Below are positions 18,237 to 45,174 of a stretch of 64,000 bases of DNA, in pieces (within the stretch, counting starts at the first letter, position 1; each line of letters begins with the position of its first letter). The notes under the pieces were generated by a model. That model did not search any database, had not been told where the DNA came from, and was given only the letters and a program-made list of their open reading frames with translations. The translations under genes were made by a program, and so were the position numbers. Source of the stretch: Gnetum montanum (Eukaryota > Plantae > Gnetophyta); contig MNCI01003401.1 in the NCBI GenBank assembly GCA_015680685.1, positions 165,843-229,842 of the forward strand. The letters run 5' to 3'.

Positions 18237-19048
18237 TGATGAGTGGTGAGGTACCCCTACACTCAACCATACAAATATGAACGTTTCACACATGATCCGG
18301 TTGAACTCTGCAGACAAACTAGTTCTGGTATCCAGACAGTTACTCATAGATCACAGTTCACTGTCTTCCCACTTGGACTAGTATTAGCTTTGTCACATAT
18401 GGTTTAGTCTAGAGTGAGGTGTATGATGTGGTTTGTAACCTAGTGCTACTCCTAGAGGCAATGGAAAATATATTTAATTAAGCTAAGAGGAAAAGGGAGA
18501 GAGAATCTAAGCTAGCCTAAGTGCAATGCACATCTGTTCCTTAATCATCCATACACATCTTGGACCTCATGCATGACTACCACTGGGATTACCAAGCGCA
18601 TGGCCTAAGTACGCTACTAGGTTACCAAGTAGTCACACTTAAATGCTCATGATCAAGTCGTACTCATTCCACATTTAATAGGAGTTTAGGGTAAAGAGAT
18701 GTTAACTATGAAAGTAATAAATAATAATAAAAATTAAATAATTAAACTAAATGAATGCTACAATGATGAAGTAATCTCGATCTTTATTTCCAGTCATGTG
18801 CATGTCCAAGTACGTCACACTCGAATAAGGATGTCATACAATTACAATCACCACACTGCGGGCATGCACCGGGAGGAAAGGATTGAGAGAAATCTAAACT
18901 TAAAAAACTTACAATAAAATATAACTTACTCCTTACTTTCCAAATCTGCCCACATCTTATTTATAAATGAGCAGATAGGTTGTGATATCGCGTCTAGGTT
19001 GTGATATTGCATCCGCGATATCGCAGCCCACAAATTTATGACTCATCA
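18237..19048 (-). repeat. N1 3' LTR
   Basis: Colinear with 26070-26878. PPT TTAGTCGTGGGGGTA (minus) at 19049-19063. TATAAATA (minus) at 18958-18965 follows three GCGATATCGC-type palindromes. Confidence 0.92.
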
Positions 19049-19239
19049 TACCCCCACGACTAAATGAAAACTCGTCCTTGAGTTAAAGTGAGAACAAGCT
19101 CCATTGATTACACAGTGGATAGGTATGGGATTATTAACTGACAAAAATGGGTTCATGTTGCAGTGTGGAATCAAAACAAAATTAGGACACAACACAGAGA
19201 ATGCAAAATAAAATCCTACAACTACAAAATTGATGGAAC

Positions 19240-22037
19240 TCATGTAGTTCCTGTTGGCGATGGCTCCTCCATAGGTGCCTTTCCCTTATCTTGTGCTCTA
19301 GGTCTTGGGACTTGATGGCATTGAAGTATGGCCTGGATTTTTTCCTCTTCAGTTCGAGGGTCCTGTGTCGTCCATGCCAATGTTTCGATGTTTGATGGAG
19401 TTAGCACCTTCCATGGGAAGGGTAGTTGCGGAAACATTTGATTTGCCTTGACATAGCAAGCCGCAAACACCTGTCGTTCCTCTTCGTAGGCTCTGGCTTT
19501 GTCTCTATATTCTTGAAAATCTGCAAGTCATCGAGCCAAGTCTATTGTGATACCCTTTTGCACCTAGTAGCTTGCTTTTACCACATCGAGTTCAGAATTT
19601 GCAATCTCCAATTTTTGTAACAATTTCTTGCATTCTGTAAATTTTGCTTCATATTTAACATAGGTGGTGGCTACCTGTTGCTCAAGCTCTGTTCTCGGGT
19701 GCCCTGCTATTAACATGGCAAGGTTGGCATACCGCAGGTTTGCCAACTCCATGTACTCCATAAGGTCTTGGATCTGCAGGTCCTAATTCTTAACTTCCGC
19801 CTGGTGGGCAAATGCGTATGCATCCAATATGGTCCACCAGTCAGCGTGTTGAGCACTGAGAGCATTGATGTGGGCCTTGGCCATATGGATCTCCTTCTCA
19901 ATGATCTTTTTGTACATCCCCACTTGGTGCCAGAAGTGCTCCTTTAGATTTTCATACCGTTTAGCCACATTCTGCCACGCACTTATTTCAATAGTCTTCT
20001 TCTTATGGATGGCACGTACCTCCTCCTTCGAGAGGGTTCAATTTTCCCTGGCTAAATAGTTCATGTCTTAGTTGACCTTGACGAGTTGTTCTCGCAATTA
20101 TTGAAAATGTTCTTCGAGAACATTCTTTTTGTTTTCCATAGAGATCAACCAAAGGTTATCAACAACAAGCTGTTTGTTTTCCTCTTATAAGGCCTTCATT
20201 GCCTTGGTATGCGTGTAAGTTTGTGCCTGTGCTGCAGAGGCATCCCAAAAAACTTTCTTATTTTCCTCTACCACCTTCTTATTCTCTGTCAATAACTTGG
20301 TTAGTTACTTAGTTTTGAAGGTGTCCAACTGGTCTATGAGGACAAATTGGGAAGGATCCCGCTGTGCTGCTTGTAGGGTCACGAGCCTTTCTTGTAGTCT
20401 TTTCACCTCTGCTTCTACATGCTTGGCCCTCATCTCTATCAAGACCAGCTTTCCCTTGGTGGAAATGAGATTTGATTGAATTGTCGTAACATCCTGAGGG
20501 ATGTCAAATAGGGATGTCATTACTTGTCTTGTTTGTAGTAATCGATCAAGTACATCCTCATGTTCCGCAAGAGTCATTGAGGTTTCGTCTAAAGTTTGAG
20601 CATCCCGTGCTCCTGTAAGGTCTACCGATGGCACAACAGGTACATTGAATGATTCCTTAATGTGGTCTACAACCACTTCTGTGGTTCCTACTGCATCCTA
20701 GTGTTGCATGACCACCACTGTGGCCCCTTCACCAATTTCTAATTACACTTGGCAGGATGTAGCATTCCCTGAGATCTATTGTGACCAAGTGCTTTCCCCT
20801 CCTCTTGTATGGATGGACACTTCATCCCTTGCACTATCCAAAGAAATTGTGGGTTGTATGGCATCTTTGATGATGTGGAAGAGATTTGCATCATCATGAC
20901 TTCCCCAACTGACCATCTCAACGATGACCTTGAGATGGCTCATCGATGATTTGTAATCTTACAGTGGCGGTGATTGATCCTGGCCCATGCTAGGCCCTAC
21001 TTCTTGTTGTTGGTTGGGTCTCATACATGGAATTTGGCTAGGTCATTCAAGTTGAGTTGCACTTGGCCCTGCCGTTTGTTCCTTTTCTTATTCCAACCCC
21101 AGCGTCTCACCAGTGATTTTCCTTGCAACTAGTGGCTTTAGCAGTTTAGCATATGAAGCATTTTGGGCTTTGCGGAGGACATCATTAGTATATCCTCTGA
21201 TACCAGCACGTTGGCACAGCTTCCTGATAAGACAAGGGAAGGGTAATGTAAGCTTTCCTGTCTTTCGTTCTTCAAACTGCCTCAGGATCTCCGTAAAATA
21301 TAGATAAGGTAGCTGAGGATTAACCTTTCCCATCAACACTGCACATCCTCTAGCTGCATATGTTGAAATTCTTTTTAAGCCCTTTCTGGGGAAGAGGTGA
21401 TAAGTTCCCATTTTAAAGTAGATCCTTTCTTCCATCGTCAACTCCCCAAATTTCTTATCTTCCTTGCCATATGCCCTTTCCAACCAAACTCGTCGCGCAT
21501 CAGGGTCTAAATGAGTAGACAATTGAGCAACCTTTGGCCATGTATTCGGCAGGTTTAATACTTCCAAAATGGCTTGAATAGAGAAATTGATTGTCACACC
21601 ACAAACGTTAACTGTTGTGCCTTGTTCCTTGTTATGCCAAAATTGGTACATTTCCCCTAAGTACCAGGCACTACTTTCAGAGAGGATAGGCTATAATGGG
21701 GACCCTTTGAGGTGATCTCTAACGACCTCTGAAGCAAATTCTGTGAAAGATTCAAAATTTAATTCCAAAATCACCGCAGTGAAGATGGACCTTTCATGGA
21801 TAGCCTGAACACAATCTTGAGGTAATGTAAGATGTTGTCCCTGTTCAGGCACTGCAGAAACTCCTCCTTCCGCCTGCCTCAATTGTATAGTAGCAGGGTC
21901 CTCTTGGTGAATGCTAAATGATTATTCCTCCTACTCTGCTTTGCATGCTGTCCGGCAGGAACTTGTCCTTTGCCTCTCCTAGGTCGTTTGCTCCCACCTT
22001 GAGCAGAACCTTCCTGTTATCCACGTTTCGGGGCCAT
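19240..22037 (-). pseudogene. N1 accessory ORF (Athila env-like position): MAPKR start, plant-transposon-protein-like domain, long coiled coil; decayed
   Basis: TGATTGTAG|ATG GCC CCG AAA CGT at 22037. VNVCGVTINFSIQAILEVLNLP..LPFPCLIRKLCQRAGI resembles the Transposase_32/PF20167-type domain (recalled, not searched). LRYANLAMLIAG block is shared with the N2 accessory ORF. Confidence 0.8.
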
Positions 22038-22519
22038 CTACAATCACACAGAGCCAATCGTTAGTAAGGTTGTTACCAAAGTTAGGTTATACCTTACTGC
22101 TTACCTTAATGAATTTGCTTTATCTCCATGTGGCGTTAATTAAAATTTCCCTAAAAGATTATAATATTAGATCCTCTTGCTTAGGTCATTTCCAAATCTA
22201 GTTTCCCAGTATCACTAAGGGGATAAAATTATTTTTGACACATTTATCTTTAATTTCATAGCTAATTACCCTTGACAATGTCCTTCGGTTGATGAAACAT
22301 TTCAAAAACGTTATGCACTATTCAGCATGTGCCCCTCCCCAAGACTAAGCTGAACACTCTGGGTTCAAGTGGGTTTAAATGAAATGAAAATCAGAGAACC
22401 AGCGAGCGAGTTATGGATATGAAAGCAAGGGATGCGTAATCGCAAGTCGTAGAGAGAAATTTGAAAAACTCCCCCACGTGAATAGTTGAAAATGATGTTA
22501 AGTAGTGCCAGGGGGTCAC

Positions 22520-22597
22520 ATATATATATATATATTTTTGACATGATATCATGGACGCGATATCGCGTCAGCCGCGATATTGCGTACGCGATATCAT
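22520..22597 (-). promoter_or_regulatory. Putative internal promoter of N1 accessory ORF: 4 GCGATATCGC-type palindromes followed by a TATA/(TA)n tract
   Basis: Palindromes at 22543, 22557, 22574 and 22588; (TA)n at 22520-22535; same motif and similar spacing as the N1 LTR promoter. Confidence 0.65.
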
Positions 22598-23972
22598 GGC
22601 CTATCAATGTTAGGGCATAATAAAGGATACCACATTTTTAAGATTGTCTTGAAATTGTGATGGAAGTTAAGGACATATGGACAAGTGTTAAAGGGTTCCA
22701 AGGTAATTTAACTAGTTCTTGAAGGCACAAATAATGATGATGGTGTGGAATGTATCAATAAGGACCTTGGGTGGTAAGGGAGAGAAAAAGGATATGTAAT
22801 GGTTCATAGGAACGTTTGAATTAGAGGGGTAGTAATAAGGGAAAGAACATTGTTGAAGATATGTTGAGGGCAATAAATAGTGTGTGGAAGATGTTTTATG
22901 AGTGCAAATTACAAAAATTACGCAAGTGGGTCCTCCCCAAAGAAGGTTCTAACCTATAATGCCCTTGTGTAACCCCACTTAGAAGTTTCCATGGGCACTA
23001 GAAGGGTTTAATATAATCCACACCAGGTCCACAAAACACACACACACACATGTGTAAGTATCATCAGAATGAGGTCGAAATTCTATGCTACCCAAGACAC
23101 GAGTTACAATTATATGAACAGAGAGGTGAGACGGGGTATAGAAGGGATTGTAGGAATTGGGACATGAGGTAATTGACCCAGGGCACAATGAATCCTACGT
23201 GTAAAGCATGATTAATGTGTCATTAACTTGTCATTCCAAGATCAGGACCAAGTCCATTCCTCTAATCAATGACACCACATTGTTTCATCCCATGATGAGC
23301 GACTATGAGAGCATCATAACAACAAGGCATACAATCACTTGGCATTTTGTTCAAGGGAGGAGTGATTTTTGCTTTGTGGCACTTCCTTTTTTTTTTGTTT
23401 TGTGTGTGTGTGTGTTTTTTTTTTTTGAATGCTGAATCCAGAGAAGCTGCCAACCTTTAGGCATGGGTGCATGTCTTTCCAGTGAGACCCCCTAGAACGG
23501 CATTGGATTTTTGAGTGCCTTTTGATTACTCTTATTCACATTTGCATTAGATCTACAAGGATCTTAGTAAAACCACATTGCATGATAATTCTCACAAACG
23601 TCACCAAAGAGAATCTACAAGTTCCCTTGATGTCACACCCTAATCATTCCCTCTTGGTCCATCCTTCTTCATTTTGGGTACAATGAACACAAAATTAATT
23701 TTAAGTTTTAAGAATGTCAAGAATATCATTGTACCCTCGAAAAGAACCTCTTATTTGTAGAATGGATGAATGGGTGTAATGGGCTCACTATCCAAATAAT
23801 TGATCACTCAAGACTTAATAACATAAAACACACCTCAACCAAAGAGCCACTTACTTATAGAAAAATAAAAAGACAAAAAGATAAAACAAGAAATTGAAAA
23901 AATTAAAAACTGGGAAAATAAAACAATGTAAAATTTAAAAAAATGAAAAATATTTATTAATCCTACTTGTTA

Positions 23973-25996
23973 TTAGAATGGGGAATATCCCCCATAACTA
24001 AGCAATTGAGCATGGCAAGGATTAATAATTGAGAGATGAGGATCCTTGCATGTTGGAAATATTGAAACTTGGTCATACTTCCCCCATTGGGGTTCACACA
24101 CCTGATTGTAGTAAGCGTAGTGGGGCACTTTACAAGATGTGGTTCGCGGATAAATATTTGACCCACTATGGTACTTGTGACCATAAGATGGTACGCAAGG
24201 ATCAGAATGTTGCTCTCCATGGATGTATTCATTGGGCCGTAATGAAGTGACACGAGGCGTTGGGTTCGAGGAGAAGGGTACACCACAGTGTTGGACTTGT
24301 GCTAAGTTGGAGGATGCAGTGGCCTTGGAACTGTGTTGTCTCTTCCTACGATCATGTCTAAATAAGGGGCACCTTTGATGTTGAGGAGGTCTCTCACTGT
24401 TGTTGGAAATAGTAGCACAAGTAATGTTCGTGTGTTGTTGCGGTGGTGCAGACACTTTAGGAACAGTTGGCGGCAATGTAGAAGAAGGGAAAGGATGAGA
24501 ATGCTGAAATTTAGGAGAAGTGTGAGGTACACAAGGTGGTGGTTGTGTTGAGGACATGGGTTGATAGTACTGAGGAGAATAATAATGTGGTGAGGTAGAG
24601 TATGTTGACCCAGTTGGGGAAACAGGATGTTGAACTAGATAAGCGTTTAGATCCGGATGATATGAAGGGTGTCTCCAGTTTAGGGATGGCTTCCCCCATG
24701 ATTGGGATTGTTGCCACTATGATTGAACACAATATCTCTTTATGAACTCTGGGTGTAACATGCTTCCCCAATGCTCATATAAATGTAACAAGATTGGGCA
24801 TTGGCCCTTGGGGTGATTGTACAGGCAAATGTTGCATTCATACATATGATTGGCAATTGGGCTCTTATTTTCTTCATCCCTTCTTTCCGATTGTCTAATG
24901 ATGTTTTGTCCTACTTCTCGGGTTGTCAAAAATCTATCTCCAATAATATTGATATATTCCTCACACTTTTTATGCATCCATTCCAGTATCTTATTGATCT
25001 TTGCCTCAATTTCATCTAATGGTTGTTGTACTGGCAAAGATGGTTCTTCCTCCTTGAGATAGGTTGATTTCTCCTTTTTATGATTATGGACCTTTGTTAA
25101 GTTGAGATTTTGGTCCCGTTAATGTTTTTCAACACTCTCCCATCTAGCCATTTATCCTTCTTCTTTTGCTACCTGCTTAATAAGCTCTCGAAATTGATCG
25201 GTTCATAGTTCATATAGTTGCCCTTGGGCATACATCCCTAGGTTCTCTCTTGTTTCATCACGAAGCCCATCAATGATATGATACATTAGCCTTTCCTCGG
25301 AGAACTCATGGCCTAGATAGTTGTTTAATAGTGCATAATATCTTTCTAATGCCATGTCCAAGGGTTCATGTTATTCTTGTTTCCACTCTTGGATTTGTTT
25401 CCTTAAGGCTGACACTCTTGCGTAGGTTTGATATCTTTCGTTAAAGAGTTCTACCATTGTTGGCCAATTTCGTATCGAATTTGGTTTCAACAATCTATAC
25501 CATACTTTTGCTTGGCCAACAAGTATCATAGGAAAGAGCTTGAATTTTTACCAACCGTTATCAATGTTGTTCCATGCACAGGCATCGTAGAAGGCTTGTA
25601 AATGTTGTTGTGGATCTAAGTCATAGCCTCCTAAGAAATTGAGAAAGTTGTTTAAATCAAGCCTGGGTAGATGGCTCTCTTTACAATGCCTATGGGAGAT
25701 TCGAACAACCTCTTGTATTTGCGGCAGGCTTGTAGTGGCCAGTAGGGGTTCATCATCATCAAGTAAGTTATGCTTTCACGCATTATGATGATGTTGCTTT
25801 CGTTTATGCTTATAAGAATCCCCCAACTTAGATTGCGTACTCCAACCTTCATTGTCATATAATTCATTGGTTCTCCAATGAATTGCCTCACTAGATGTGG
25901 CATTATTGTAGTCTTGTAGGAGAGGCATGGTTGTGAACTTGTGTGTGAATTTTTATGTGAATTTTTGTAATTATTTCTTCCTAAAAGATATATCAT
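23973..25996 (-). pseudogene. N1 gag, decayed
   Basis: DPQQHLQAFYDAC..KVWYRLLKPNSIRNWPTMVELFNERY..QIQEWKQE..EPLDMALERY and the ECNICLYNHPKGQCP motif are homologous to N2 gag (ECGICQYEHPKGCYP). Start position approximate. Confidence 0.8.
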
Positions 25997-26050
25997 TAAT
26001 TCCTATACAGCGACCTTATATGATATAACTAATCTAGATAACTAGCACCG

Positions 26051-26069
26051 TCCTCGGCAATGACGCCAA
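26051..26069 (-). promoter_or_regulatory. N1 primer binding site, tRNA-Asp type
   Basis: Reverse complement TTGGCGTCATTGCCGAGGA resembles the Athila PBS TGGCGCCGTTGCCGGGGA. Confidence 0.8.
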
Positions 26070-26878
26070 TGATGAGTGGCGATGTACCCCTACACTCAGC
26101 CATATGAATACGAGTGTTTCATGCACAATCCGGTCAAACTCTGCAAATGGACTAGTTGTGGTATCCAAACAATTACTCATAGATCACAGTTTGTTGTCTT
26201 CCCACCTGGACTAGTATTAGCTTTGTCACGTATGGTTTAGTCTAGAGTGAGGTGTATGATGTGGTTTCTAACCTAGTGCTACTCCTAGAGGCAATGGAAA
26301 ATATCTTTGATTACGCTAAGAGGAAAAGGGAGAGAGAATCTAAGCTAGCCTAAGTGCGATGAGCATCCATTCCTTAATCATCCGTACACATCTTGGACCT
26401 TGTGCATGACTACCACTGGGATTACCAAGCGCATGACCTAAGTACACTACTGGGTTACCAAGTAGTCACACTTAAATGCTCGTGATTAAGTCATACTCAT
26501 TCTGTGTTTAATAGGAGTTTAGGGTAAAGAGATGTTAACTATGAAAGCAATAAATAAAAATAAAAATTAAATAATTAAACTAAGTGAATGCTGCAATGAT
26601 GAAGTGATCTCGATCTTTATTTTTGGTCATGTGCATGTCCAAGTATGTCACACTCGAATAAGGATGCTGTACAATTACAATCACCACACTGCGGGCATGC
26701 ACTGGGAGGAAAGGGTTGAGAGAAATCTAAACCTAAAAAACTTACAATAAAATCTAAGAACTCACTCCTTACTTTCCAAATCTGCCCACATCTTATTTAT
26801 AGATGAGCAAACAGGCTGCGATATCGCGCCCGTGATATTGCGGTGCGATATCGCAACCCACAAATTTATGACTCATCA
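26070..26878 (-). repeat. N1 5' LTR
   Basis: Pair of 18237-19048; palindromes at 26818, 26832 and 26845; TATAAATA (minus) at 26794-26801. Confidence 0.92.
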
Positions 26879-26883
26879 CTCTT

Positions 26884-27862
26884 AATATCAAAATGCTCTA
26901 AATTCACTCTAATAAGTGGTGAACTATTTAGAAATAATTTCTAAGGGATATACCTTAAGTGTTTGAACCAAGAGCAAGCTAACGATGCTTTAAAACAACT
27001 TCACAATGAAGGACATATAGGATATCGCTCATTAGTTCATAAAATTGTGAGGGTTGTTTATTATTGGCCTACTATGATTAATGATGCTTATAACCTAGTT
27101 AAGACGTATGTCCAATGCCAGATATTTAAAGGTAAATATTCGAAGAGTTCGGCCCCTTTACAACCTATAATAGAAACAAGACCATTTGCCCAATGGGCCT
27201 TAGATTTTATTGGAGTGATCAATCCTTTATCTACTACCCTACATAAGTTCATTTTGACAGCCACTGATTATTGCACACATTGGTTAGAGGTGAAAGCAAC
27301 CAAAACCGCATCATCTCGTGAGGTCATTTGCTTCTTAGAAAATAATATAATCTCCAGATATGGCTATCCTTATGCTTTAGTAGTCAATAATGGGCCAGCC
27401 TTCATTTCCATAGAGTTTACAACTTGGGCTAGATATCATAACATCATTGTCAAGGTGGTAACTGAATATTACCCACAAGGTAATGGTTTGGCTAAATCTT
27501 CCAACAAAATTATATTAGATGGGATTAAGAAAATGGTAGCCCAAAATCCATGAACCTGGCATGAACAACTAAAATGGGTAGTTTGGGTTGATAGGATTCA
27601 TTACAAAGAATCAATAAAGACTACACCATATGATTTAGTGTATGGATAGGAACCCATATTGCCAATTAATTTATAGATTCCTACATATCAATTCTTCTTA
27701 TACTACTTAGCAACTAATGAGCATCTAATATCACGAGCATGTGATATTTTGAACGTAGAGCTTAAAAGGGTTAAAGCGATCGAAAATATGTATGGTCATC
27801 AACAAATTGTCAAGAGATGGTTCGATAAAAAATATGCATCTAAAATTTTTCAAGTAGGTGAC
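26884..27862 (+). pseudogene. Tat pol, part 2: integrase zinc-binding region and core
   Basis: LHNEGHIG..YYWPTMINDA..CQ; PFAQWALDFIG..TATDYCTHWLE; YYPQGNGLAK. Confidence 0.9.
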
Positions 27863-28732
27863 TGATGAAATTTCATTAGTGGATGCGTTGACTAGGCCAT
27901 GTATACGCAGCCTTCCATGTGTGGACGTGGCCCCGTTTACGCGGAGACTATTTTGGCCTATAAATAAGAGAGCCTTTCACCTCATTTAGGTACCTTTTAG
28001 TTAGTTGTAGCAACGCTCTTGTAGTTTGTTCCCACAGGAGATAGAATATTTTCCAAGTGCCCGCAGCAGGTGTAAGAAAATTTCTTGACTCTTTATTTGA
28101 GCGATGATGTATCTGAGCCCATTGGTGTGAAGGTAATAAAGGCGAACTCTTAAGCATTCCTTGCAGCATTTGGACTTAGCCATTTTATGCATTCAGTAGT
28201 TTAATATGTTTATGCTTTGTTAATTGCTTGTTAACTACTTAAATTTCTATTATTGTTATTTTAATCGCTATCACTCCTTTATAGTTCATCAAGGCCATAA
28301 GTACGACCATCTCGAACGTAAACCCAACACTTGGTGAACCCAGTGACGCTTAACGTCCGGTAACCCAGAAGTGCTTAGGGGATGCTCAGAACGTGCTTGG
28401 AAGATGGGATCAGATACTTATGCTAGGAATAGTTAGAATACAAATTAGGATAATTATAGATTAGAAAATAGTTCATCCTTTACTTTCCACACTTTAATTA
28501 GACGCCAAAAGATAAGTAAAAGCTATAAAAATCATTAGTCTTAATCTCACTTAACCATAACAAACAAAACATCACAAGTGAGATTAAGAAGGCAATGACC
28601 ATTCTAACCCAAGGTTTCGCTGGTTAGAGTTTGGTATATGTTAAGTGCTTACAGTCTACGAAATTCGACCAAGTTGCGTGTGAACACCCGTGATTCGTAT
28701 GGTTGGGCGTAGGGGTACCTCGCCGCCCATCA
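27863..28732 (+). repeat. N2 5' LTR
   Basis: Colinear with 40626-41524; TATAAATA at 27959-27966 preceded by GTATACGCAGCC-type motifs. Confidence 0.92.
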
Positions 28733-28877
28733 TTGGCGCCATTGCTGGGGAATTTTAGTCTTACATGTGTCATCTAACCTTAGTGAAATTATCATACAAA
28801 TCGTTGGAACGGACCCAGGATAGAAATATTTATGCATGCTAGGCGAATTAAAGTAAATAGTAAGGTACACCGATTAC

Positions 28878-31800: not shown

Positions 31801-34800
31801 TGCCACCCTTGCTCCTGAAAAAAAGAAGAGACTACTGAAGGTGGTAAACAAATGGGATGCCACATTTTCATGGTCATATCCTGAGTTAACTAGAGTTGAT
31901 CTCAGGGTCTGCCAGCATCAAATCTATCTTGACCCTTCCATGAAGCCACGATGACAGCCACAAAGATATTTGGACCCCAAACTAAAGCAGGTCATCAAAT
32001 ATGAAATCAAACAATTGCTAAAGGTGGGGTTCATCTATTCTATTGTCAATAGTGAATGGGTTAGCCCACTCATTATCATGCTGAAGAAAGGTGGAAGATG
32101 GAGGGTGTATTGATTTTCGATTGCTCAACCTAGCTACCTTCAAGGATTACTTTCCACTCCCATTTGTGGACCAGGTGTTGGACACCATCGCAGGGCATCA
32201 CTATTCCAGCTTTTTGGATGGTTATAGTGGTTATAACCAAATTCAAATAGCACCCAAGGACCAAGCCAAAACAACTTTCACAAGTCCATGGGGGACTTTC
32301 GCATACAAAAAGATGCCTTTTGGCCTGTGTAATGCACCTACTACATTCCAACGCCTTGTCCTCAACATCTTCTAGCAACAGATTGGCAATGGGGTAGAAG
32401 TCTTCATGGATGACTTCTCTACCTATGGACCATCTTGAGTAGGATCTGAAAAGGTATGTAGACACCAATTTGCGGCTCAATTGGCAGAAAAGCCATTTGA
32501 TGGTCCAAGAAGGCATTGTACTAGGGCATCGCATCTCACAAATAGGGATTAGTATGGACCCTGAAAAGATCAGGGTCATCCAAGGAATCACCCGCCAACC
32601 AAGCACCATAAAAGATATTTGGTCATTCCTTGGCCACACTGGTTACTACCGGTGCTTCATTGAAAACTTCTCGAAGATCACCAAGCTGTTGGTAGAACTT
32701 ACAAAGAAGGATGCTTCGTTCATCTAGACCAAGGAATGTGAATCTGCATTCCAATTACTTAAACAAAAACTCATAGAAACTCTAGTTATATGAGCACCTG
32801 ATTGGTCCAGGCCCTTTCACATCATAACAGATGCATCTAATTATGCCTTGGGAGCCGTGCTTACATAGTGTGATGATCAGAATTGTCCATACTATATCCA
32901 CTATGCAAGCCGTAGCATTGTGGGTGCTCAGCTTAACTACACTACCACTGGAAGGAGTTGATGGCAGTGGTGTTCACCTTAGATAAATTCTGACACTCTG
33001 TGCTCAGATACATGGTGTTTGTGCATACTGACCATAGTGTTATTCGGTTCCTGATGAACAAACCAACAGTGAGCCCCTGCATCATATGGTGGCTGGTGAT
33101 TCTTCAAGAGTTTGATCTCACCATGGTAGACTGGAAGGAGACCGAGAATGTGGTAGCTGACCACTTGTCTCAGTTACGATGGGATGACACAAAAGAGGAG
33201 GAGCCCCTCTTCGATCAATTTCTAGATGAACTCCTCTTCGCAGCTGCAGTTGATCCACAAGTATCCAAGGAATCCCCTTGGTTCAACCGCATCCTCACCT
33301 ACCTCACAACCCAGGAGTTGCCAAAGGAGTGGAACCATCAGCAGAAACAGCAGTTTCTCCATAAGGCCAAGCATTTCATGAAAATCAATGGCCACCTTTA
33401 TAAGGTGTGCACAGATGGCCTAGTTCGATGGTGTCCCTGATGACGATACACTGTGCGTCCTCCAAGATGATCACAAGGGCCCTTGTGGGGGCCACTATAC
33501 TAGATGCCACACAACCATTAAGATCCTGCTTGCAGGATATTACTGGCCCCCAATTTTCAGGGATGCACAATGGTTCGCCCGCTCCTATGAACAATGTCAA
33601 AAAGATGGTGGGATGTTGGCATGGTTGGAGGAACCTCAATAGTGGATCCAACCACTGAAGCCCTTCGACATCTGGGGCATCGACTTCATGGGGCCCATCA
33701 CACCCTTGTTGATGAGTGGTGAGGTACCCCTACACTCAACCATACGAAACGAGTGTAGCACGCGCGATCCAGTCGAACTCTGCAGACTAAATGCCTAAAC
33801 ACCCCATGGAACACTTGGGGTTAGTCATTCGTTATCTTCCCAGACTTACTTGTTGTTGTCACGGTGTATGGTTAAGTAAGTCTGAGGTATATGATTTTTA
33901 TAGTCTTTTCTGGTNTCTCGAAGTGGTTGTACTGAGGCACCTAACTAGGAGGAAAGGGTTGAGAGAGCCTAACTAGCCTAAGTGCGATGAGCAGCCGATT
34001 CCTTGACTAGCCGTACACATCTGGGACTACCACTGGGATTACCAAGCGTAGATCTTGGAATATGCCACTGGGTTACCAAACAGTCATGATGCTCGTAATC
34101 AAGTCGTACTCATACCGCATGCAACGAGCAGCCAATTCCTTGACTAGCTGTACACATCCTTAGATGCTCGTAATCAAGTCGTACTCGTATCGCATTCTAG
34201 GAAAGCAATAAATAACAATAAATAAAATCCTATCCATGCACTACAAGGTTTATCCAATCAAGTTCATCTTTATTGCTGTACACAACTTGTGTTCAGGTAC
34301 AATGTTGCTTGAATAAAGATCCATTCACTCTAGGACTCCTACTGCGGGCACATGGGAAATTAATTTATCTCTGGAGTGATCAAACTGCCAGAGCTTCGCT
34401 ACTTCTAGCCAGGATTGGGAAATAAGGGGAGTGTTGCCTCTTATTTATATATTTGACGACGAACCACGATATCGTGTACGCGATATCGCAGGGGACGACG
34501 TGATATCGCGTACGCAATATCGCATGGGATGTGATATCGTGATGGCTGCGATATCACGTACGCGATATCGCGGCCCATGCGATATCGCGTCTCATCACTT
34601 GTCAAATGGAAAGGCATACATCATCGTAGCTATGGACTACTGTACAAAGTGGGCATAAGTAGCCATCGTCGACTGTTCTTCCAACACCACCACATGATTT
34701 GTCTAGCAACAAATCGTTAACAAGTTTGGAGTGCCACGTGCACTCATTTATGATAATGGGACTCATTTCACAGGTGTTACTTTTTAGAAACTCATGCAAC

Positions 34801-35390
34801 ACTTGGGGGTCACCCATAAATTTACAACACCCTATCACCCCCAAGCCAACGGGTAGGGAGATCACCAAGATCCTTACCCGAACCATCAGCAAATATAGGA
34901 GGGATTGGAGTACAAAGCTTAACGATGCCCTATGGATCTATCGCTCCACTTGGTAACTTCCTGTAGGGTACTCTCCCAATGAGTTAGTGTACAAAAAGTT
35001 ACCAATACCTCCAATTCAGGCCAAACTCCACACACTATCCACCGCTAGTGACTTGGGCCTTGACCTCCTGCTAGCACAATGTGAACGACTTATCAATTTA
35101 AGTGTGCTAGATAAGAACCAATTAGTGGCCCTGTCTTCCAATGAGATCCACAAGGCCTACAACAAAAAATGACATGATCTTAGGATTTGGAAGGTCACAT
35201 TTAGATGTGGAGACAAGGTGTTGTATTGGAACCCCTCACATGTATCTCAACCGACCAATTTTCAGACACTGTGGATGGGACCTTACATTGTCTCTGAAAC
35301 CTTTCCATCTAGGGCCTTGCTTATCCACAAACCTAAGGACCCCACCAAAACATAGTTAGTCAACCGCCAACAACTGAAACCTTTTCGTGA
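28878..35390 (+). pseudogene. N2 gag-pol (Gag, PR, RT, RH, INT), many stops; integrase split by solo LTR N3
   Basis: PR LLDSGS (~31066); RT CIDFRLLN..KDYFPLPFVDQVL..FLDGYSGYNQI..MPFGLCNAPTTFQR..VFMDDF; RH VHTDHS..ENVVADHLS; INT WGIDFMGP|..AMDYCTKW..TPYHPQANG; GPY motif at ~35275. Start approximate. Confidence 0.9.
33710..34597 (-). mobile_element. Athila-like solo LTR N3 (related to the N1 LTR)
   Basis: TGATGAGTGGTGAGGTACCCCTACACTCAACC..TCTCATCA; TSD CTTGT at 33705-33709 and 34598-34602; eight GCGATATCGC-type palindromes at 34467-34590. Confidence 0.93.
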
Positions 35391-37060
35391 ACTTCACTCA
35401 ACTAGTGCAACTGCCTCGTCATCACCAGGATAGCCTCGCTCCATATTCCACGTCTCCTCCTTTCCACCCAATCATGGGGGAGACCATTTTCCATGCTGAT
35501 CCATTCCCCTTCGTCCCTCACTTTTTGTATTTTTTTTTTACACTTTTTTTTTCACCATCATTACTACGTTTTCTATTCTTGCTACAATTTTCCTTTCTTT
35601 AATTATTTTCATTATTTTTCCATTTCTTTGTTTGTTGTTTCATTTCCACTTTTGTTGCTGCTAAAAAATCATCTTGTTGTTGTCAGGTTTGCGTGGATGG
35701 TTTTTGTTGCGATGGGTCATGGGGAATGGCCTACCTTTTACCCCAGTCTTGCCCTCACATGGTTGTTCTTGGTTTTTGTGGTTACTTTCACCTCATAATA
35801 TCAGCAATGGGTCCACGTCATTCACCCATTCATCCACTCCGTGGTTTTCCTACCATCGGGATTATGCAACCCCAGTTCATTTTAAAGAAAATATTTTAAT
35901 TAATGTATGAATTGTGTAGTTCCTGGACTCGGGGATGACCCAATGGTTTGCATAGGGTGTGACTTCAAGGGGAATGCAACATTCATAGTCCTCTTCTACC
36001 CTTGGGTGGCACGAGTGCCCTTACAGATTTCTTACCACTCCAAATTCTTTGCTACAAGGAAGCTCCTTGGTAGTTTAACCTTGCATGGTGTGGTCCTCAT
36101 CAAAAATCGAAAAAAGAAAGAAAAAAAATGAAAAAAAATCCATGAGGATTCAAAGCACACCCCTTGGTCAGATGCATGCACACAAGCATGGGTCTTCACA
36201 TGGTGTGGTTCCCACAAATTGAAAACCAAAATAAAACACAAGGATAACATCCTCACCATGTTGGAATTCAAAGCACACCCCTTAGACCACCTCTCACGGG
36301 CCGCCAACACTAGTTATGGGACTTCTTTTGTCCCCTCTAACTTGGTCACATTTCGCTTCCTCCCTCTCGCGTCTATTGGAGTGGTGGCTCTCTGTGGGTG
36401 CATTCCTACCCACTTGCGGGCTAGATGAGTCTTCGTGTGTTGTTGCGATGTCACTGGAGGTGGTTGGTTTTAGGTCTAAACTTGGAAAAGGTTCTATCAG
36501 GTCACTTAACCATAGCTTCATGTGGGGGTTTCATGGAACCGATCATTGGACATCCACACCTCATCTCTCTCTCTCTCATCCACTTCTCTCCCTCCCTCAT
36601 CCCATTGCCAATTTTATGACTTGATTGTTTGTCACATCTCTCATGACCTTCTCATGCTTGGGCAGGGTCTCCTGGATGGAAGTCTTAACTTACGTTCGCC
36701 ATTCCTTCACACTAAGGCCCATGGACCCTAGTGTTGGGGATATGCAAGGGCTACAAAGGCTATCGCCTACTATGGGGAGGACCTACTTGCATATTCTTGG
36801 TGTTGTTCATTAGTCTCTCATCCTTGGGGTTGGTTGGTGGCTTGTTTTCACGCCATTTGTCGCTCGATTTCTTCCCCACGAAGTTCTTTTGAGTCACGTT
36901 CTCCTCCTTTTGACTCTTTTTCGAGCCCCAAATTTCCTCCTCCTATCCTTCGTCATGTCTAGGCCTCTCTCGTGCTTCAACCACCCCAATTTGGCATTTC
37001 AAATTCATCATTTCGGGCTTTTTTTGGGTTGGTCAACACTGGTCAATGGGTGCACACCCT

Positions 37061-37151
37061 GTGTATATGGGGCCCCATATATGCAGCCCCTTGTGTATAT
37101 GCAGCCGCATATATGTAGCCCCATCGACGCAGCGCCTTATCCCTATATATA
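37061..37151 (+). promoter_or_regulatory. Putative internal promoter of N2 accessory ORF: 5 GCGT(AT/CG)ACGCAGCC-type motifs followed by TATATATA
   Basis: Motifs at 37061, 37076, 37093, 37107 and 37122; TATA at 37144-37151; same motif class as N2 LTR 40658-40735. Confidence 0.65.
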
Positions 37152-37524
37152 CACCTGTTGCGCTTTGAAATTTTCATAATTTGGAATCCAAATTGAGGGG
37201 AGATTTTGCTATTTTTTCTGCCTAACCCTTCCCAACGCACCTACCTTCCATCACGTGTCCGCATCAACCTATCCTTGCCCTTTTAAGCAACCGAAGGTAT
37301 GCTCTCAGTCGTGGGGGGGGGGGGGTGATGCCCATGTGTAATTAATTAATTAATTAATTAGTTACTAATTACGAAAATTTTGGCTCTAACCCATAAATTA
37401 ACACTCCGGGAGACTTAAAGGAATGCATGTGCCAACAACATAACTTAGTCAACCTGAGAAGGTGTATAAGGACCATCTTGAGCTACTTATGCACACTCTA
37501 ATGGGTGGTTATGTTTGATTGTAG

Positions 37525-40452
37525 ATGGCACCCAAACTAAGGCATCCAAGGGGCAAAGGACCATCACAACCGAGGGACAAGCGCCCACGCACGGGAAGGG
37601 GACGAGGCACGCAACCACTAGAGCACATGGAGGGCTCTCATGCAACTAGCCCTCTCCGCGAAGGACCTGACATGGAATTTGTCCATCAGATTCCCAAATA
37701 GGAGATTCCCAACGAGTAATCACAAGGGGATGAGACTTCTGGGATAGCACCATGGCTTGAGGTCACCCTGACCCAAGCCTATCTTGATGCTATCACACCG
37801 CACGAGATGCAGCAAATGGTCCTTCAAGAGCTAAACTTTGGACCATTCCTTGAGAACGCACTAGAAGAAGTAAGGCTCCAACTGCAAAACTTTCCAATGT
37901 TGCCAATCATCACAACTAGTGGTGAATGGTACTTAGGAGAGACCTATCTCTTCTGGACAAATCGGCAACCAGGGTCTAGAGTAAGAATCAAAGACATTTA
38001 TGTCTCTTACTCTTTGTAGACGATAGCGCAAGCTTTGGGGTTGCTCGAGACCAAGGCGGATGTGGTGAAAATTCCAAAGCAGGCTAACCCCGAGGTAAAG
38101 GCGAAATGGACCAAACGATGATATGGGATAGAGTGCAAGGAATTTGACTCTCTGACCATAGCAGAGAGGATATATTCAAAGATCGTGTCTTACCACTTGA
38201 ATCCAACGGTAAGACCTAGCAAAATCACAGCCTTCTCCGCTCGTGCATGTGCCGCCTTGAGTAGGAAATTCCCAATGAGTCTTCCACAGCTGCTATTTTT
38301 GAAGATTGAAAAGAGGTTCACTAAGAATGAACATGGAAAATGAGCTCTCCCCTTTCCTTGCCTAATCTGAAAGTTGTGAAAATGGGCAGGGATAGCACGG
38401 TACTCCAATGATGTAATCTGGCATGCCCCGATTACCTCTTGGCAGGAAATGATGAAGGATAAAACTCCTGCCACCACACAAACAGATGAGAAGTAGCAAC
38501 CACCTCCACCACCTACACAAATAACATAGCTAGGTTCGCAAGCCATAGCAGAACACATCCACGAAATCCGGGAAACGCTCTTGAGCCAGCAAGAGCAATC
38601 TGGTAGGACTGGTGGAGGAGAAGACCCTTTGGTCTATTGCCCTATAATGAGCCACTCGGAGCAAGTGGCTTGATCAGTTAGCATGCTTAAAAGGGCAAGG
38701 CCGATGTTCTCATCCTCCCGAACTCCAATGGCTGCATGAACAAATCCTAGTGTCCGAGAGGTAACAGTGTCCACACAACAGTTATTTCCTGAAATTTCTG
38801 GGAATGCTGCTACCTTCTCGGTATGCTTGGAGGATGATCAAGGGGAAACAATCCTGGCGATGCAGCACCAAGGACAGGAGACTGTGGCCAAATTGGTTAC
38901 TGACACAATTGCTACAACCCTTAATGCACTGGCAGCACCTATACCGTACATTCATGGACTACAAGATGTACAGGCATCTGCCGGAACTTCGCGTAGCAAG
39001 ATTGATGCAGCCCAACATGAGTTGTTGGACTGATTCGTGGGAACCGGGTAACCACTCTCGGATGTCTTCGACCTTTCGAACAACATTATTGCAACCCAAT
39101 CGGAGCTACTCTCGTCAAGGGGTAAGAGCCTCATTTTGGAAGGGCAACTTGAAGCTACTCAAGTCGCTTGTCAACGCTTGGCAATGGAAGTAGCCTAATT
39201 AAGAGCCCAGCTTAATAATCCAGCTATCCTCGATCATGTAATCACCAAAGATGAAGCTTTTCAATAGCTTCAACTCAAAATTCAGATCGTTGAGGATGTG
39301 CGAGAGACGACGATCTTCGATAAGTCCTTAGGGAGATGTTCGAGCATATCATTTAGACAAGGACTTGGTGGAGGTTCGTCAGGAGAATGTCTGACTGACC
39401 ATGGAGGTTCATCACCTACGCAATGTTGGTGCAGAAAATGAACACATGAAACTTTTATCCACCAATAGCAGGAAGAACTAGCCAGGGTGAATGTTGACGT
39501 AAGAAGGTTGGCCGCTAAGAATCGAAATCTATCAATGGAGGAGGTTCGGGCGTTGCGACAGAAGCCTGCAATTGAAATTACCACTTGGAAGAACGAGGCC
39601 CTGAAATTTGAAAAAGTTAAAAATCATTACAGGGACCAAGTGGGATTGCAGAAGGAGGTGAATGAAAAACATATTCAAGTCACCAAGGCTAAGATAAACC
39701 AAGTGCTCCAGCAGCTCTGAGAGGGAGGCAAGGTATGGCAACCTATCTTTGATGGGTTGAATGACTACAATCAAGCTAAAATCCGCCTTAAGGAGCTGCA
39801 AATTGAGGAGATGACAGAATATATGGAGCCTGCCACCCTTCGCTATGCAAACCTGGCTATGCTCATAGCCGGAAGACCACGGTCAAAATTGGAAAAACAA
39901 GTGGTTGCCTCGTATTCCCTATACGAGGGAGAGTTCCAGGCGCATAAAGCAACAAAGCAAAAGCTGGAAACGGCAAACGTGAAACTCGAGGTTCTCCATA
40001 CAAGCTTTGAAGGACAACGTATAGGCACGGAGAACCTAGCCCATAGGATGAATAACTACCAGCAACTGCAAACATCAATTCGAGCATTTGACATCGAATG
40101 AAAGTAGTTCGCAGCCTAGTTTGTCAACCTCAAAGAACTCTTCTCAACACTGCCATGCCCTTGGGAAGTTCCAGTTCCAGCACACATTGGAGAAGCTGCC
40201 TGGACTATGAACCATCCCAAAACCAAAGAAGAAAAGATGAGGGCTCTCTTGGAGGCTTTTCGACTACCTCCAGAAGTTGCAGCTGCTGCAGGGCAACCAT
40301 CATCCGTGCCGGCACCAACGCATGGGCCAGAGGTTGGAGAAGGTCCATCAGAACCACTGCCCCAGGGATGGTGTGACCTTCTTCAACAATTTTGTGCATC
40401 ATTCTACACGGCAGAGACTCCAGGACTAGAGAGGTGTTCAATTTTGCTTTGA
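37525..40452 (+). pseudogene. N2 accessory ORF, homologue of the N1 accessory ORF; decayed
   Basis: TGATTGTAG|ATG GCA CCC AAA at 37525. LPFPCLI*KL*KWAGI (~38345); EYMEPATLRYANLAMLIAGRPRSKLEKQV; LPCPWEVP..PKTKEEKM. A candidate 5'-UTR intron runs 37297(GTATGC)-37524. Confidence 0.8.
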
Positions 40453-40625
40453 ACACCACCATTTTTGTAATTTGTCCTTCTCTATAACTCAGGCACTTGG
40501 TCAAATTAATGTTGTGTCATGTGTGTGTCATATGTGTGTCAAGTCATGTGCGTTGCAAATAAAAATCCATACCTTCCAAATTGTAGAGTAACTAGAGGAC
40601 AAGTTTTTACTTAGCCGTGGGGGTA

Positions 40626-41524
40626 TGATGAAGTGTCATTAGTCGATGCATCAACTAGGCTGCGTATATGCAGCCACGTCGATGCGGCCCTATCGACGTA
40701 GCCTTCCATGCGTCAACGTGGCCTTGTTTACGCGGAGCCGATTTTGGCCTATAAATAAGAGGGCCTTCCGCCTTATTTAGGTACCTTTCAGTTAGTTGTA
40801 GTGAAGCTCTTGCAGTTTGTTCCCACATGAGATAGAAGATTTTCCAAGTGCCCGCAGCAGGTGTAAGAAAAGTACTCGGCCCTTTATTCAAGTGTTGATG
40901 TATCTGAGCCCATTGGCATGACAGCAATAAAGACAAACTCTTCAAGCATTCCTTGCAGCATTTGGACTTAGCCATTTTATGCATTCAGTAGTTTAATATG
41001 TTTATGCTTTGTTGATTGCTTGTTAATTACTTAAGTTTCTGTTATTGTTATTTTAATTGCTATCGCTCCTTTATAGTTCATCAAGGCCATAAGTATGACC
41101 ATCTCGAATGTAAACCAAACACTTGGTGAACCTAGTGACGCTTAATGTCTAGTAACCCAGAAGTGCTTAGGGGATGCTCAGAATGTGCCCGGAAGATGGG
41201 ATCGGATACTTATGCTAGGAATAGTTAGAATACAAATTAGGATAATTATAGATTAGAAAAAGGCTCAACCTTTACTTTCCACACTTTAATTAAACACCAA
41301 AAGATAAGTAAAAGTTATAAAAATCATTAGTCTTAATCTCACTTAACCATAGCAAACAGAACATCACAAATGAGATTAGGAAGGCAATGACCATTCTAAC
41401 CCAAGGGTTCGCTGGTTAGAGTTTGGTGTATGTTAAGTGGTTACAGTCTATGGAATTCGACCGAGTCACGTGTGAACGCCCGTGATTCGTATGGTTGGGC
41501 ATAGGGGTACCTAGCCGCTCATCA
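40626..41524 (+). repeat. N2 3' LTR
   Basis: Pair of 27863-28732; palindromic GGCTGCGTATATGCAGCC at 40658; TATAAATA at 40750-40757. Confidence 0.92.
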
Positions 41525-42787: not shown

Positions 42788-45174
42788 TGTTGAGGTCAAC
42801 CTCATCATGCTAAGCATGGGGCCATTATCAACAATATTAAAAGTGAAAATCCCACTTATCTCCCCTTGTGAGACCATAAAAATGAACTTCACATACATTT
42901 CCTCATGGGAAAGTTAAAAGAAATAGCATGAAAAGACACTCATAGAGATTCAATAGGAAACATATCAAATAAAGTATGTGTTGATGACAACATTACCTAA
43001 GCTAGGCACAAGCCACAATCAACGCACATGTAGGCAATTATAGTTGCAAAGTAGTTAAAATGCACATATTTAATTCATAGGAATTCAACAAATGATATAC
43101 TTATTTTATGTGGAAAAAGCAAAATATAGGCAATCGAGGTCCCAACCATACATAAAAAAATAAAAATAATAAAATAAAATAAAATTATGAATGTCAACAG
43201 CGACAAATGTTGCATTATAAAAATAAAAATAAAAATAATAAAATAAAATAAAATTATGAATGTCAACAGCGACAAATGTTGCATGAAAAATGTGCGTACG
43301 TGCTTCACTTTTCGTCCAAAGTCTTTTCCGCAATCTACATCACAAACTCCGTCGCCTCTTCCCATGATGCCAGTCTTGTCATCGCAAAAACACAAATAAC
43401 AACACTAATCATCCTTCTCATCGCAATCTAGCCAACGTAAAATTAATAATACGCCACCTGACGTACCTATACATTGTTAACCTTGACAAAAATCAATACC
43501 CCCCATGGGTGAGGCATGGTAACTGACGCAGCGTGATGGCAGTTGATAGTAACATCGGTTGACGGGTTTCTTCTCCTGTGCAGGCTGCTATAAACAGCGG
43601 GGAAGGCACGGGGCAAAGAGGAGAGGGAAGGATGCGTACGGCACGGAACAGTAGTCTCTGGAACCGGCAACACGGTCTGGTTGCTAACCTTTTCTTTGAA
43701 ACGTGCAGCGGCTGGCAGCGCATGTCCGTCAGCAACGACTATTTTATTTTATTTTATTTTATTCTTCTGTATGCGACGCATCTCTTAGCCTCTTGTTCTT
43801 GCGAGCAACGCGCGTCTGACAGCAACGCACCTGCAGACGGCAGCCTTCTCTAGACTCCCGGGCAATGGCAGACACCTGCAGTGAGTCAGCAGGATGGTCA
43901 CGAATAACATGACAGATGCACCGATGGCTACAACTACCCTTGCATCTCAGTGACATACAGCGTGGGAGCAGAGGGTGGCTGAAGTTCTCTTCTCATCAAC
44001 CCCTGTAACTTTTAAGCATCAACAAGTGACATACAGCGTGGGAGCAGAGGGTGGCTGAAGTTCTCTTCTCATCAACCCCTGTAACTTTTAAGCATCAACA
44101 AATTCCCATGGGACACGGCCACTGCTTTGCCTGTACACATTAGAATGCAGAGACACAGACTGCTGATTGACAGAAAGCAATGTGAACCCAGTGCAGAGAC
44201 AAACGCTGCTGCTGTAATTGAATCAGAAAGACTCGAGGCAAAGCATTTCGTCTCAAAGAAGTAACGTGGAAATTGCGTTTAATTTTGATCTTTCAAAAGG
44301 TTGAAGGCACAAATTCAATTTTCGCTTGTTATGTTCTCTTTCTTATTTGTCTCCTGTCACTGTTTTCTAAGCACTCGTTTTTTAAAAAAAAAAAAATTGC
44401 AGACACATTAATTTACCAGTTATTTTTTTTTACTATGTTTTTTTAGTTCATCCATTATTGCTGTATACTAAATCTCATTTTCATTTGAACATTTTTCATT
44501 TAAAGTTTACACATTCTTTGTGTGTTGTATCTAAGTATCTTTAAATATTGTCAAAGTTCATTCATTGCATAAATATTTTTTTTTTATACATGAAAGAGGC
44601 TTAATGATTTAGAAAATAGAAGGTTTCACTTTAAAAGAAGGCTATAAAGGCAATTTGTAATTAGCAAATAAGTTTCACATATAGTTGTAGATGGTAAATA
44701 GTATAATCTAGCAAGCAATCAGGTAAGAGAAGATCTAACCTTAAATAAAAAGCTCCATCTATCCTTGTATATCATATAAAGGTGAGATATGACTTGCATC
44801 AAAGGTTGTGTATATTTACTACCAGTTTATTAACAAATTTTATTTTCATTAATGTTGTTATACATATGGTTAAGAATATTTTATTAGTGGATTTCTAAAT
44901 AGTGCTAAACTCTAGTAAGTGCCCCAACAATATTTACTGAAAATTAGTTTTTGATAGTTATTATATAATTTCCTTGGTTTTCGTATAAGCATTTTAGTTC
45001 CACATTACTTTAGAAATAGTTAGCCTCATTATTATTATTATTATTATTTGTTACATAGCCCTTTTCAGGTGAGACTATTCCTAGTTTCGTACCCATACGG
45101 GAGGTGCCTTAAGCAATAGTCTCCTAAAACGAGTTTTCACAAGGGTTGGCGTGTCCAAAATTTATGCATCAACA
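42788..45174 (+). repeat. Tat element 3' LTR (A-type)
   Basis: Preceded by PPT TTGGGGGCTAAG (42776-42787). Contains internal tandem duplications at ~43165-43285 and 43949-44100 (76 bp x2). Confidence 0.92.

Follow-up and report, generated by a model that had tools for sequence, protein, structure and literature searches.

Two old long terminal repeat (LTR) retrotransposons, referred to here as N1 and N2, lie within a 64,000-nucleotide stretch of the Gnetum montanum genome (assembly GCA_015680685.1, contig MNCI01003401.1, positions 165,843 to 229,842; hereafter the window, with position 1 as its first letter). Both belong to the ATHILA lineage of Ty3/gypsy elements and bear remnants of the accessory open reading frame (ORF) that ATHILA elements carry toward their 3′ end. 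In each element, tandem arrays of CpG-rich palindromes stand immediately upstream of the TATA box of the LTRs, and an array of the same, element-specific type, again followed by a TATA tract, stands upstream of the accessory ORF. These matched modules may be cis-regulatory, forming an ATHILA counterpart to the repeated motifs of Sireviruses that is read by a dimeric factor, probably of the host; we regard the chances of this reading as about evenly balanced. Under this proposal, a very short U3 region, composed almost entirely of the family-specific palindrome array and then the TATA box, would serve as the LTR promoter. Repetition of this array type, with a TATA tract, ahead of the ATHILA-specific 3′ ORF would supply a further promoter or an enhancer. 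A single dimeric transcription factor, probably supplied by the host, would bind the LTR and internal arrays alike, such that the two would be co-regulated.

Palindrome arrays of N1 and N2

The palindrome that makes up the arrays of N1, GCGATATCGC, is strongly over-represented. With up to two mismatches allowed, 22 matches were found versus 6.45 expected from shuffled sequence, and none of 100 shuffles reached 22. Seventeen of these matches fall into four clusters, located at 18982-19024 (three units), 22557-22597 (three), 26818-26854 (three), and 34466-34588 (eight). Three of the clusters belong to the LTRs and the interior of N1, where an extra unit at 22543-22552 (four mismatches, every one CpG-type) brings the internal array to four. 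The remaining cluster lies in N3, a solo LTR that is nested in N2 and shares 67% identity with the N1 LTR. Given eight units in N3 versus three in the N1 LTRs, the motif is common to at least two LTR families that differ in unit number.

Arrays of N2 are built from another motif. Matches to GCGTATACGCAGCC with up to three mismatches number 11 (0.80 expected), eight of which are at 27895-27942, 37075-37120, and 40658-40675. A CG-centred variant, GCGTCGACGCAGCC, has six matches (0.41 expected), five of them within the N2 arrays. The N1 motif type is missing from the arrays of N2, the N2 types are missing from the arrays of the N1 family, and each element's internal array is made of the motif type of its own LTRs. 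Within an element, similarity between the LTR and the interior is limited to the array and TATA. The two motif types have a GCG-N4-CGC dyad frame in common, and neighbouring units of the N1 type are linked by GTAC to give longer palindromes. When consensus sites for CAMTA (CGCG-box), E2F, GATA, LUX, and bZIP (ACGT) factors were compared with the arrays, none produced a convincing fit.

The arrays also vary in length within a single element. The array in the 5′ LTR of N2 is 28 nt, or two units, shorter than that in the 3′ LTR. This difference between LTRs of the same element shows that the arrays are unstable, and the N2 array changed in length either during reverse transcription or once the element had been inserted.

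Sequence decay in the arrays is of one kind. Across 18 GCGATATCGC-type units there are 19 deviations, of which 13 are at core CpGs and six are at edge positions in CpG context. All 19 are C>T or G>A changes. The observed/expected ratio of CpG is 1.08-2.26 in six of the seven arrays versus a background of 0.39-0.51. That the arrays were once CpG-rich, and have decayed through CpG transitions, is supported by these values.

Much of this layout had been recognized in a first-pass annotation of the sequence, which reported palindromes upstream of the TATA box in both LTRs of N1, four more units before a second TATA tract ~480 bp ahead of the accessory ATG, and a like arrangement with a different motif in N2, there ~375 bp from the ATG. 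Three units are indeed present in each N1 LTR, and the distances from internal TATA to ATG were measured as ~483-497 nt in N1 and 381 nt in N2. The homology of the two accessory ORFs and the CpG-type nature of the deviations (19 of 19) were likewise confirmed. For the LTRs of N2, the annotation had listed the 3′ array only, and a 5′ array is present as well. Its further remark that no such arrays were seen elsewhere in the elements holds for the elements proper, but not for the eight units of N3 nested in N2.

LTR promoter and length of U3

On the sense strand, TATA is found downstream of every array in all seven copies. In the LTRs, TATA(A/T)A(A/T)A comes right after the array in five of five copies representing three LTR types, and the TATAAATA boxes of N1 and N2 start at 26801 and 18965 (N1) and at 27959 and 40750 (N2). 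Spacing between the TATA box and the polyadenylation signal AATAAAG (at 26621, 18788, 28135, 34274, and 40926) is constant at 176-180 nt in the five LTR copies. The stretch between the LTR start and the TATA box, in contrast, depends on unit number and measures 78-147 nt.

The end of the transcript could be placed with RNA reads. The reads carry one species label and were mapped at a likeness of 80%. They derive largely from diverged relatives, and most are <90% alike. In the N1 5′ LTR, loose read ends of poly-T accumulate before 26600-26603 (103 + 54 reads in run X15 and 67 + 53 in run X16). They define a poly(A) site on the element strand, 15-21 nt past AATAAAG and ~278 nt into the LTR. Given this site, U3 is only ~110 nt long and comprises the LTR end together with the array and TATA box, the array being essentially its sole upstream element. 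In N2, RNA depth drops beyond 40994 in four of four runs, consistent with the same LTR layout.

A separate observation concerns reads that match the polypurine tract (PPT) and LTR start of N2 (40589-40631) and run on into GCGATATCGC-type units. In expressed relatives, therefore, an N2-like 3′ end seems to be coupled with LTR arrays of the N1 type, a pairing that hints at recombination between LTRs and internal regions or at junctions common to families.

Internal module upstream of the accessory ORF

The internal TATA, TATATATA, starts at 22534 in N1 and at 37144 in N2. Just past it in each element is a copy of the PPT core, CGTGGGGG, which occurs four times in the window (0.33 expected), the other two copies being at the PPT/3′ LTR junctions. 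From their sequence, the internal copies are candidate central PPTs, or may be traces of a duplicated junction. In both elements the acceptor-like TGATTGTAG, followed at once by ATGGC, stands directly at the accessory ATG. The interval between array and ORF is alignable between N1 and N2 only at the TATA and at the acceptor/ATG.

Alignment of the N1 and N2 leaders revealed no conserved 5′ splice donor. Judging from the presence of GT donors at ~37297 and ~22263, a leader intron in an internal transcript is conceivable. Mapped RNA reads gave no joint at the 22038 acceptor of N1 among the joints listed (15 of 20). Joints from 19049 to 22571-22603 were dismissed as mapping effects, in which LTR arrays of relatives, finding no 3′ LTR in the stretch used for mapping, were aligned to the internal array instead. 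The Athila-derived TSI transcripts of Steimer and colleagues (2000) reportedly come from the 3′ half of Athila.

Lineage and accessory protein

N1 and N2 are old, degenerate LTR retrotransposons of the ATHILA lineage, with LTR pairs that are 89.6% and 90.7% identical, respectively. The ATHILA primer-binding site (PBS) has the signature TGGCGCCGTTGCC, for tRNA-Asp/Asn, and lies a few AT-rich bases past an LTR end of ...TCA (preprint 10.64898/2026.03.20.713144). The corresponding junctions read CTCATCA-T-TGGCGTCATTGCC in N1 and CCCATCA-T-TGGCGCCATTGCT in N2, and each PBS matches at 11 of 13 positions. A Pfam scan of 85 ORF pieces from window positions 18000-42000 gave N2 the gypsy order of gag, reverse transcriptase (RT), and integrase (Retrotrans_gag at 29858, RVT_1 at 32085, and Integrase_H2C2 at 33424), and RT and integrase were absent from the N1 matches of that scan. 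The elements are like other ATHILA members in PBS, LTR termini, and a 3′ ORF with the domain PF20167, and N2 also in gag-RT-integrase order, the assignment to the lineage being made by PBS and ORF.

N1 is 8.6 kb long with termini TGATGA...TCATCA, and its pol-less combination of gag and ORF is a known non-autonomous form. It is comparable with two published types, namely the LTR+gag+env Athila elements of Arabidopsis (PMC2410132) and the gag-protease-only ATHILA elements of Brassicaceae, which have a mean length of 8,784 bp (preprint 10.64898/2026.03.20.713144).

The ATHILA-specific 3′ ORF is recognizable in N1 by PF20167 itself, in a piece at 21091-21690 (Pfam E 3.4e-12, 47.1 bits versus a cut-off of 45), and in N2 by homology. 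Five tblastn segments connect the two ORFs, with identities of 26.5-55.6% and E values of 1e-8 to 1e-41. The nearest ESM Atlas clusters of the N1 ORF carry PF20167 and PF03078 (ATHILA), and PF20167 also occurs in the 3′ aORF of sunflower Athila 14 (PMC11728184). In contrast to the env-like description of ATHILA ORFs, no transmembrane segment was seen in the homologous pieces of N1 and N2.

The function of the ATHILA ORF is given as unknown in the ATHILAfinder preprint (10.64898/2026.03.20.713144), and searches with the N1 and N2 remnants uncovered few relatives. Pfam, PDB sequence comparison, and ESM Atlas turned up neither a DNA-binding domain nor a relative of solved structure. The PDB searches returned nothing below E 0.2, and Pfam at E up to 10 returned only sub-threshold, coiled-coil-like matches for nine accessory pieces. 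The C-terminal half appears helical and coiled-coil-like by ESM Atlas and by these sub-threshold matches. ESM Atlas matches of the C-terminal piece are bacterial helical proteins and were set aside as resemblance in composition or coiled coil only. A homologous-protein search gave no match at its "longer" setting and one 134-aa fragment at its "near" setting. With phmmer against 1.84 billion representatives, three matches were obtained, of which two are short fragments of plant-like sequence and the third is a repeat protein dismissed as spurious. An AlphaFold2 model made from a five-row alignment has a pLDDT of 39, which is unusable for a fold search.

Searches of the literature, at the level of main texts, turned up no account of such palindromes in the U3 of ATHILA elements or ahead of their ORF. 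In the ATHILAfinder preprint (10.64898/2026.03.20.713144), the words "palindrom" and "TATA" are both absent, and a cranberry survey reports Athila tandem repeats only beside gag (10.1101/2021.07.15.452536).

Alternative explanations for the matched modules

Two further considerations argue for co-regulated modules. The GCG-N4-CGC frame of both motif types is what a dimeric factor would lead one to expect, and one such factor of the host could act on the two families alike. In addition, direct repeats 3 kb apart in an RNA favour deletion by template switching, and retention of the arrays in two diverged families therefore suggests selection. Weighing against this reading are the small number of full elements compared (two, both old and broken), the lack of any nameable transcription factor, and the loss of most CpGs from the N2 internal array, where the observed/expected ratio is 0.67. 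Transcript evidence also counts against it. In Arabidopsis ATHILA, splicing of the full-length transcript reportedly yields the ORF2 mRNA (PMC7197481, with reference to Wright and Voytas 2002 and Havecker 2004), and the acceptor at the ATG fits such a subgenomic mRNA, so an internal promoter is not required. Read mapping gave no start cluster near 37180 in N2, where depth was ~0-10 and no joints or start or end clusters appeared, and none near 22490 in N1, where thousands of diverged reads mapped and the TA tract at 22509-22545 was masked. The leader bin 22181-22441 has the lowest N1 depth in run X17 (4.8 and 4.2).

The same acceptor, published splicing, and lack of an internal start in these thin or diverged reads would be expected if the internal array and TATA were a non-functional or tolerated copy of U3, left by recombination, template switching, or an old rearrangement of the LTR border, with the ORF expressed only via a spliced LTR transcript. 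The N1 internal module does resemble a whole U3 (TGATAGG, arrays, GTCAAAAATATATA) when set beside that of N3 (TGATGAG, arrays, GTCAAATATATAAATA). A second PPT core copy is nearby in both elements, and recombination among Athila families is frequent (PMC2410132). We nevertheless consider a passive copy rather unlikely, for the module has an equivalent position in two families that cannot otherwise be aligned in their non-coding DNA, and TATA is kept in both. Internal arrays also match the motif of their own LTRs, and a single ancient relic would need repeated conversion or selection to do so. Moreover, the order of array, TATA, and PPT core differs from that of PPT and U3, which means that the module is not a simple junction copy.

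Strong folding of the arrays as hairpins (z -2.6 to -7.1), a further point against transcription-factor sites, allows for a structural or small-RNA role instead. In that case, the arrays would act as RNA or DNA hairpins that trigger, or are targeted by, hairpin-derived small interfering RNAs (siRNAs) and methylation, or that assist reverse transcription or packaging. Each of the six arrays tested has a more favourable fold than its shuffles (z -4.26, -5.55, -7.09, -2.64, -4.88, and -3.42), and unit number is unstable, as seen in the three versus eight units of N1 and N3 and the 28-nt indel between the LTRs of N2. In maize Sireviruses, the palindrome region of the LTR forms hairpins and is a hotspot for siRNAs and indels, with further putative hairpin precursors located ahead of env (PMC4728375). 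Any palindrome array folds, however, and the z scores are therefore not independent evidence. A fixed place right before a conserved TATA in seven of seven copies is predicted of a promoter element and is not needed for a hairpin. A role of this kind is accordingly judged quite improbable.

In the interpretation offered by the first-pass annotation, the circuit is self-encoded: the ATHILA ORF protein binds the palindromes of its own family and activates the internal promoter and then the LTR, as Tas does in foamy viruses, or opposes methylation, as VANC does. The part concerning a family-specific array and TATA at the LTR and ahead of the ORF has held up, but the self-encoded activator or anti-silencer is unsupported, as Pfam, PDB, and ESM Atlas gave no DNA-binding domain or fold for a protein whose model reaches a pLDDT of 39 and whose C-terminal part looks coiled-coil-like only. 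In favour of the idea, motif type co-varies with the element, and hence with the ORF, in two families, although with n=2 this is confounded by linkage. The N2 ORF has a basic, NLS-like (nuclear localization signal) N-terminus, the homologous pieces are free of transmembrane segments, and an NLS is predicted for the sunflower Athila 14 3′ aORF with PF20167 (PMC11728184). N1, though devoid of pol, retains the ORF and both arrays, and purifying selection acts on gag and env of pol-less Athila in Arabidopsis (PMC2410132). Family-specific tandem repeats are, furthermore, the targets of VANC proteins (PMC5735166). Against these points, the common GCG-N4-CGC frame weakens the case for family specificity, and the ORF is described as non-essential, being absent from roughly three quarters of Brassicaceae ATHILA elements (preprint 10.64898/2026.03.20.713144). 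We therefore hold a self-encoded circuit to be very unlikely, and the chance is equally slim that the PF20167 ORF protein is a nuclear, sequence-specific factor for its own GCG-N4-CGC palindromes that drives both promoters or shields them from methylation. Paired modules read by a host dimer remain the preferred account.

Other features of the window

The window has a GC content of 39% and is plant DNA. Both N1 and N2 are contained within an older plus-strand LTR element, whose own LTRs are at ~11092-12991 and 43015-45109. An integrase at 26945-27550 was assigned to this host element and to neither N1 nor N2. The LTRs of the host element contain tandem duplications of 69 nt and 76 nt (43156-43284 and 43949-44101) and no palindrome array. 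Coordinates of the features of N1, N2, and N3 are collected in Table 1.

Table 1. Positions of N1, N2, N3, and their component features in the window (TSD, target-site duplication)
Feature	Positions	Strand	Remarks
N1, non-autonomous ATHILA-lineage element (LTR-gag-accessory ORF-LTR)	18237-26878	-	TSD AAGAG
N1 3′ LTR	18237-19048	-	
N1 3′ LTR TATA box	18958-18965	-	
N1 3′ LTR array	18982-19024		3 units
N1 accessory (ATHILA-specific) ORF remnants	19243-22037	-	Broken by stops and frameshifts
N1 acceptor-like TGATTGTAG and accessory ATG	22035-22046	-	ATG 22037-22035
N1 internal copy of PPT core CGTGGGGG	22471-22478	-	
N1 internal TATA tract	22520-22536	-	Directly downstream of array on sense strand
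N1 internal array	22543-22597		4 units, one strongly CpG-decayed
N1 gag-like region	24720-25775	-	tblastn match to N2 gag region 29682-30742
N1 PBS TGGCGTCATTGCC	26056-26068	-	11/13 positions match ATHILA PBS
N1 5′ LTR	26070-26878	-	
N1 5′ LTR poly(A) signal and addition site	26600-26621	-	AATAAAG 26621-26615; addition at ~26600-26603, end of R
N1 5′ LTR TATA box TATAAATA	26794-26801	-	78 nt from LTR start
N1 5′ LTR array	26818-26854		3 GCGATATCGC-type units, LTR positions ~25-61
N2, ATHILA-lineage element with gag, RT, integrase, accessory ORF	27863-41524	+	TSD GTGAC
N2 5′ LTR	27863-28732	+	
N2 5′ LTR array	27895-27942		
N3, solo LTR of N1-like family	33710-34597	-	TSD CTTGT; inside N2 integrase region
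N3 array	34466-34588		Eight GCGATATCGC-type units; TATA at 34451
N2 internal array	37061-37133		GCGT(AT/CG)ACGCAGCC-type units, CpG-decayed
N2 internal TATA TATATATA	37144-37151	+	
N2 internal copy of PPT core CGTGGGGG	37310-37317	+	Then TGATG, as at true PPT/LTR junction
N2 acceptor-like TGATTGTAG and accessory ATG	37516-37527	+	ATG 37525-37527
N2 accessory ORF remnants	37525-40449	+	Homologous to N1 ORF
N2 3′ LTR	40626-41524	+	
N2 3′ LTR array	40658-40735		GCGT(AT/CG)ACGCAGCC-type 14-nt units
N2 3′ LTR TATA box	40750-40757	+	AATAAAG 176 nt downstream, at 40926

Two further observations concern N1. An open frame of 247 aa (23976-24716, minus strand) in the interval from gag to the internal array has no Pfam match and no counterpart in N2. 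In runs X14 and X15, RNA-read depth beyond the LTR peaks in the neighbouring bin, 23486-23746. Within the gag region, 438 nt at 25106-25545 (ends AT..AA) are missing from nine X17 reads, probably through a deletion in some of the expressed relatives and not through an intron.

Beyond the window, a viral contig collection yielded no match to the 24-nt double palindrome or to the PF20167 piece. The sole metagenome match to a degenerate form of the double palindrome (positions 10001-10024 of its contig) was rejected. It is a perfect intergenic inverted repeat on a 906-kb, bacterial-type contig of 65% GC, and is probably a bacterial operator unrelated to the ATHILA arrays.

Significance

ATHILA elements are widespread in plants and shape the centromeres of Arabidopsis (PMC7197481; preprint 10.64898/2026.03.20.713144). 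A minimal U3 made nearly entirely of palindrome units offers a compact and testable promoter model for them. A matched second module before the ORF is now apparent in both plant lineages with env-like ORFs, that is, in ATHILA elements as described here and in Sireviruses as published, which points to a common regulatory logic for the expression of accessory genes. The array, TATA, and acceptor also provide a concrete handle on whether the ORF is served by an internal promoter or by splicing. Should the factor prove to be encoded by the element, the view of plant retrotransposon regulation would change. A circuit of this kind, with the element itself encoding the transactivator or anti-silencer, would be a first among plant LTR retrotransposons and may have arisen by convergence in Sireviruses.

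Comparison with known systems

Foamy viruses possess an internal promoter in addition to that of the LTR, and their transactivator, Tas, acts on both. The ATHILA elements are similar in that, besides the LTR promoter, their interior contains another module resembling a promoter, located ahead of the accessory gene. They differ in that there is no homology between the systems, and in that the module is known here from its sequence, with no internal start seen in the thin or diverged RNA reads.

VANDAL elements, with their anti-silencing VANC proteins (PMC5735166; PMC10398659), are alike in having family-specific tandem motifs in the non-coding DNA of a plant transposable element that encodes an accessory protein of unknown fold. 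In contrast, VANDALs are DNA transposons, the protein families show no relationship in the tests made, which identified PF20167 alone, and the ATHILA arrays occupy a promoter position beside TATA boxes. The likeness is one of motif-array pattern alone.

The closest precedent for the array layout is the repeated motifs of Sireviruses, which are Ty1/copia elements. These motifs are element-specific and palindromic, are clustered upstream of both a conserved LTR TATA and the env-like gene, lie in CpG islands, and have a dyad core in common (PMC2829016). They were taken by Bousios et al. (2010) as supporting an internal promoter for env (PMC2829016), and later work by Bousios et al. (2016) dealt with their hairpins and their standing as siRNA and indel hotspots (PMC4728375). 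The arrays of N1 and N2 agree with this system in several features: short, element-specific palindromes, clustered in tandem before the conserved TATA box of the LTR; further copies upstream of an env-like 3′ ORF (22543-22597 and 37061-37133); CpG-island character; a dyad core with a variable centre; hairpin potential; and unstable unit number.

There are also differences. N1 and N2 are Ty3/gypsy elements by gene order and have an ATHILA PBS, and their core is GCG-N4-CGC rather than CGG...CCG. The Sirevirus arrays are situated 200-400 bp into the LTR and comprise at least 8 and up to 32 units, versus ~25 nt into a U3 of ~110 nt and 3-8 units here. In addition, a clear internal TATA follows the array in the ATHILA elements, whereas the Sirevirus authors found no identifiable internal promoter. 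The ATHILA arrays would work like the repeated-motif system of Sireviruses without belonging to that lineage.

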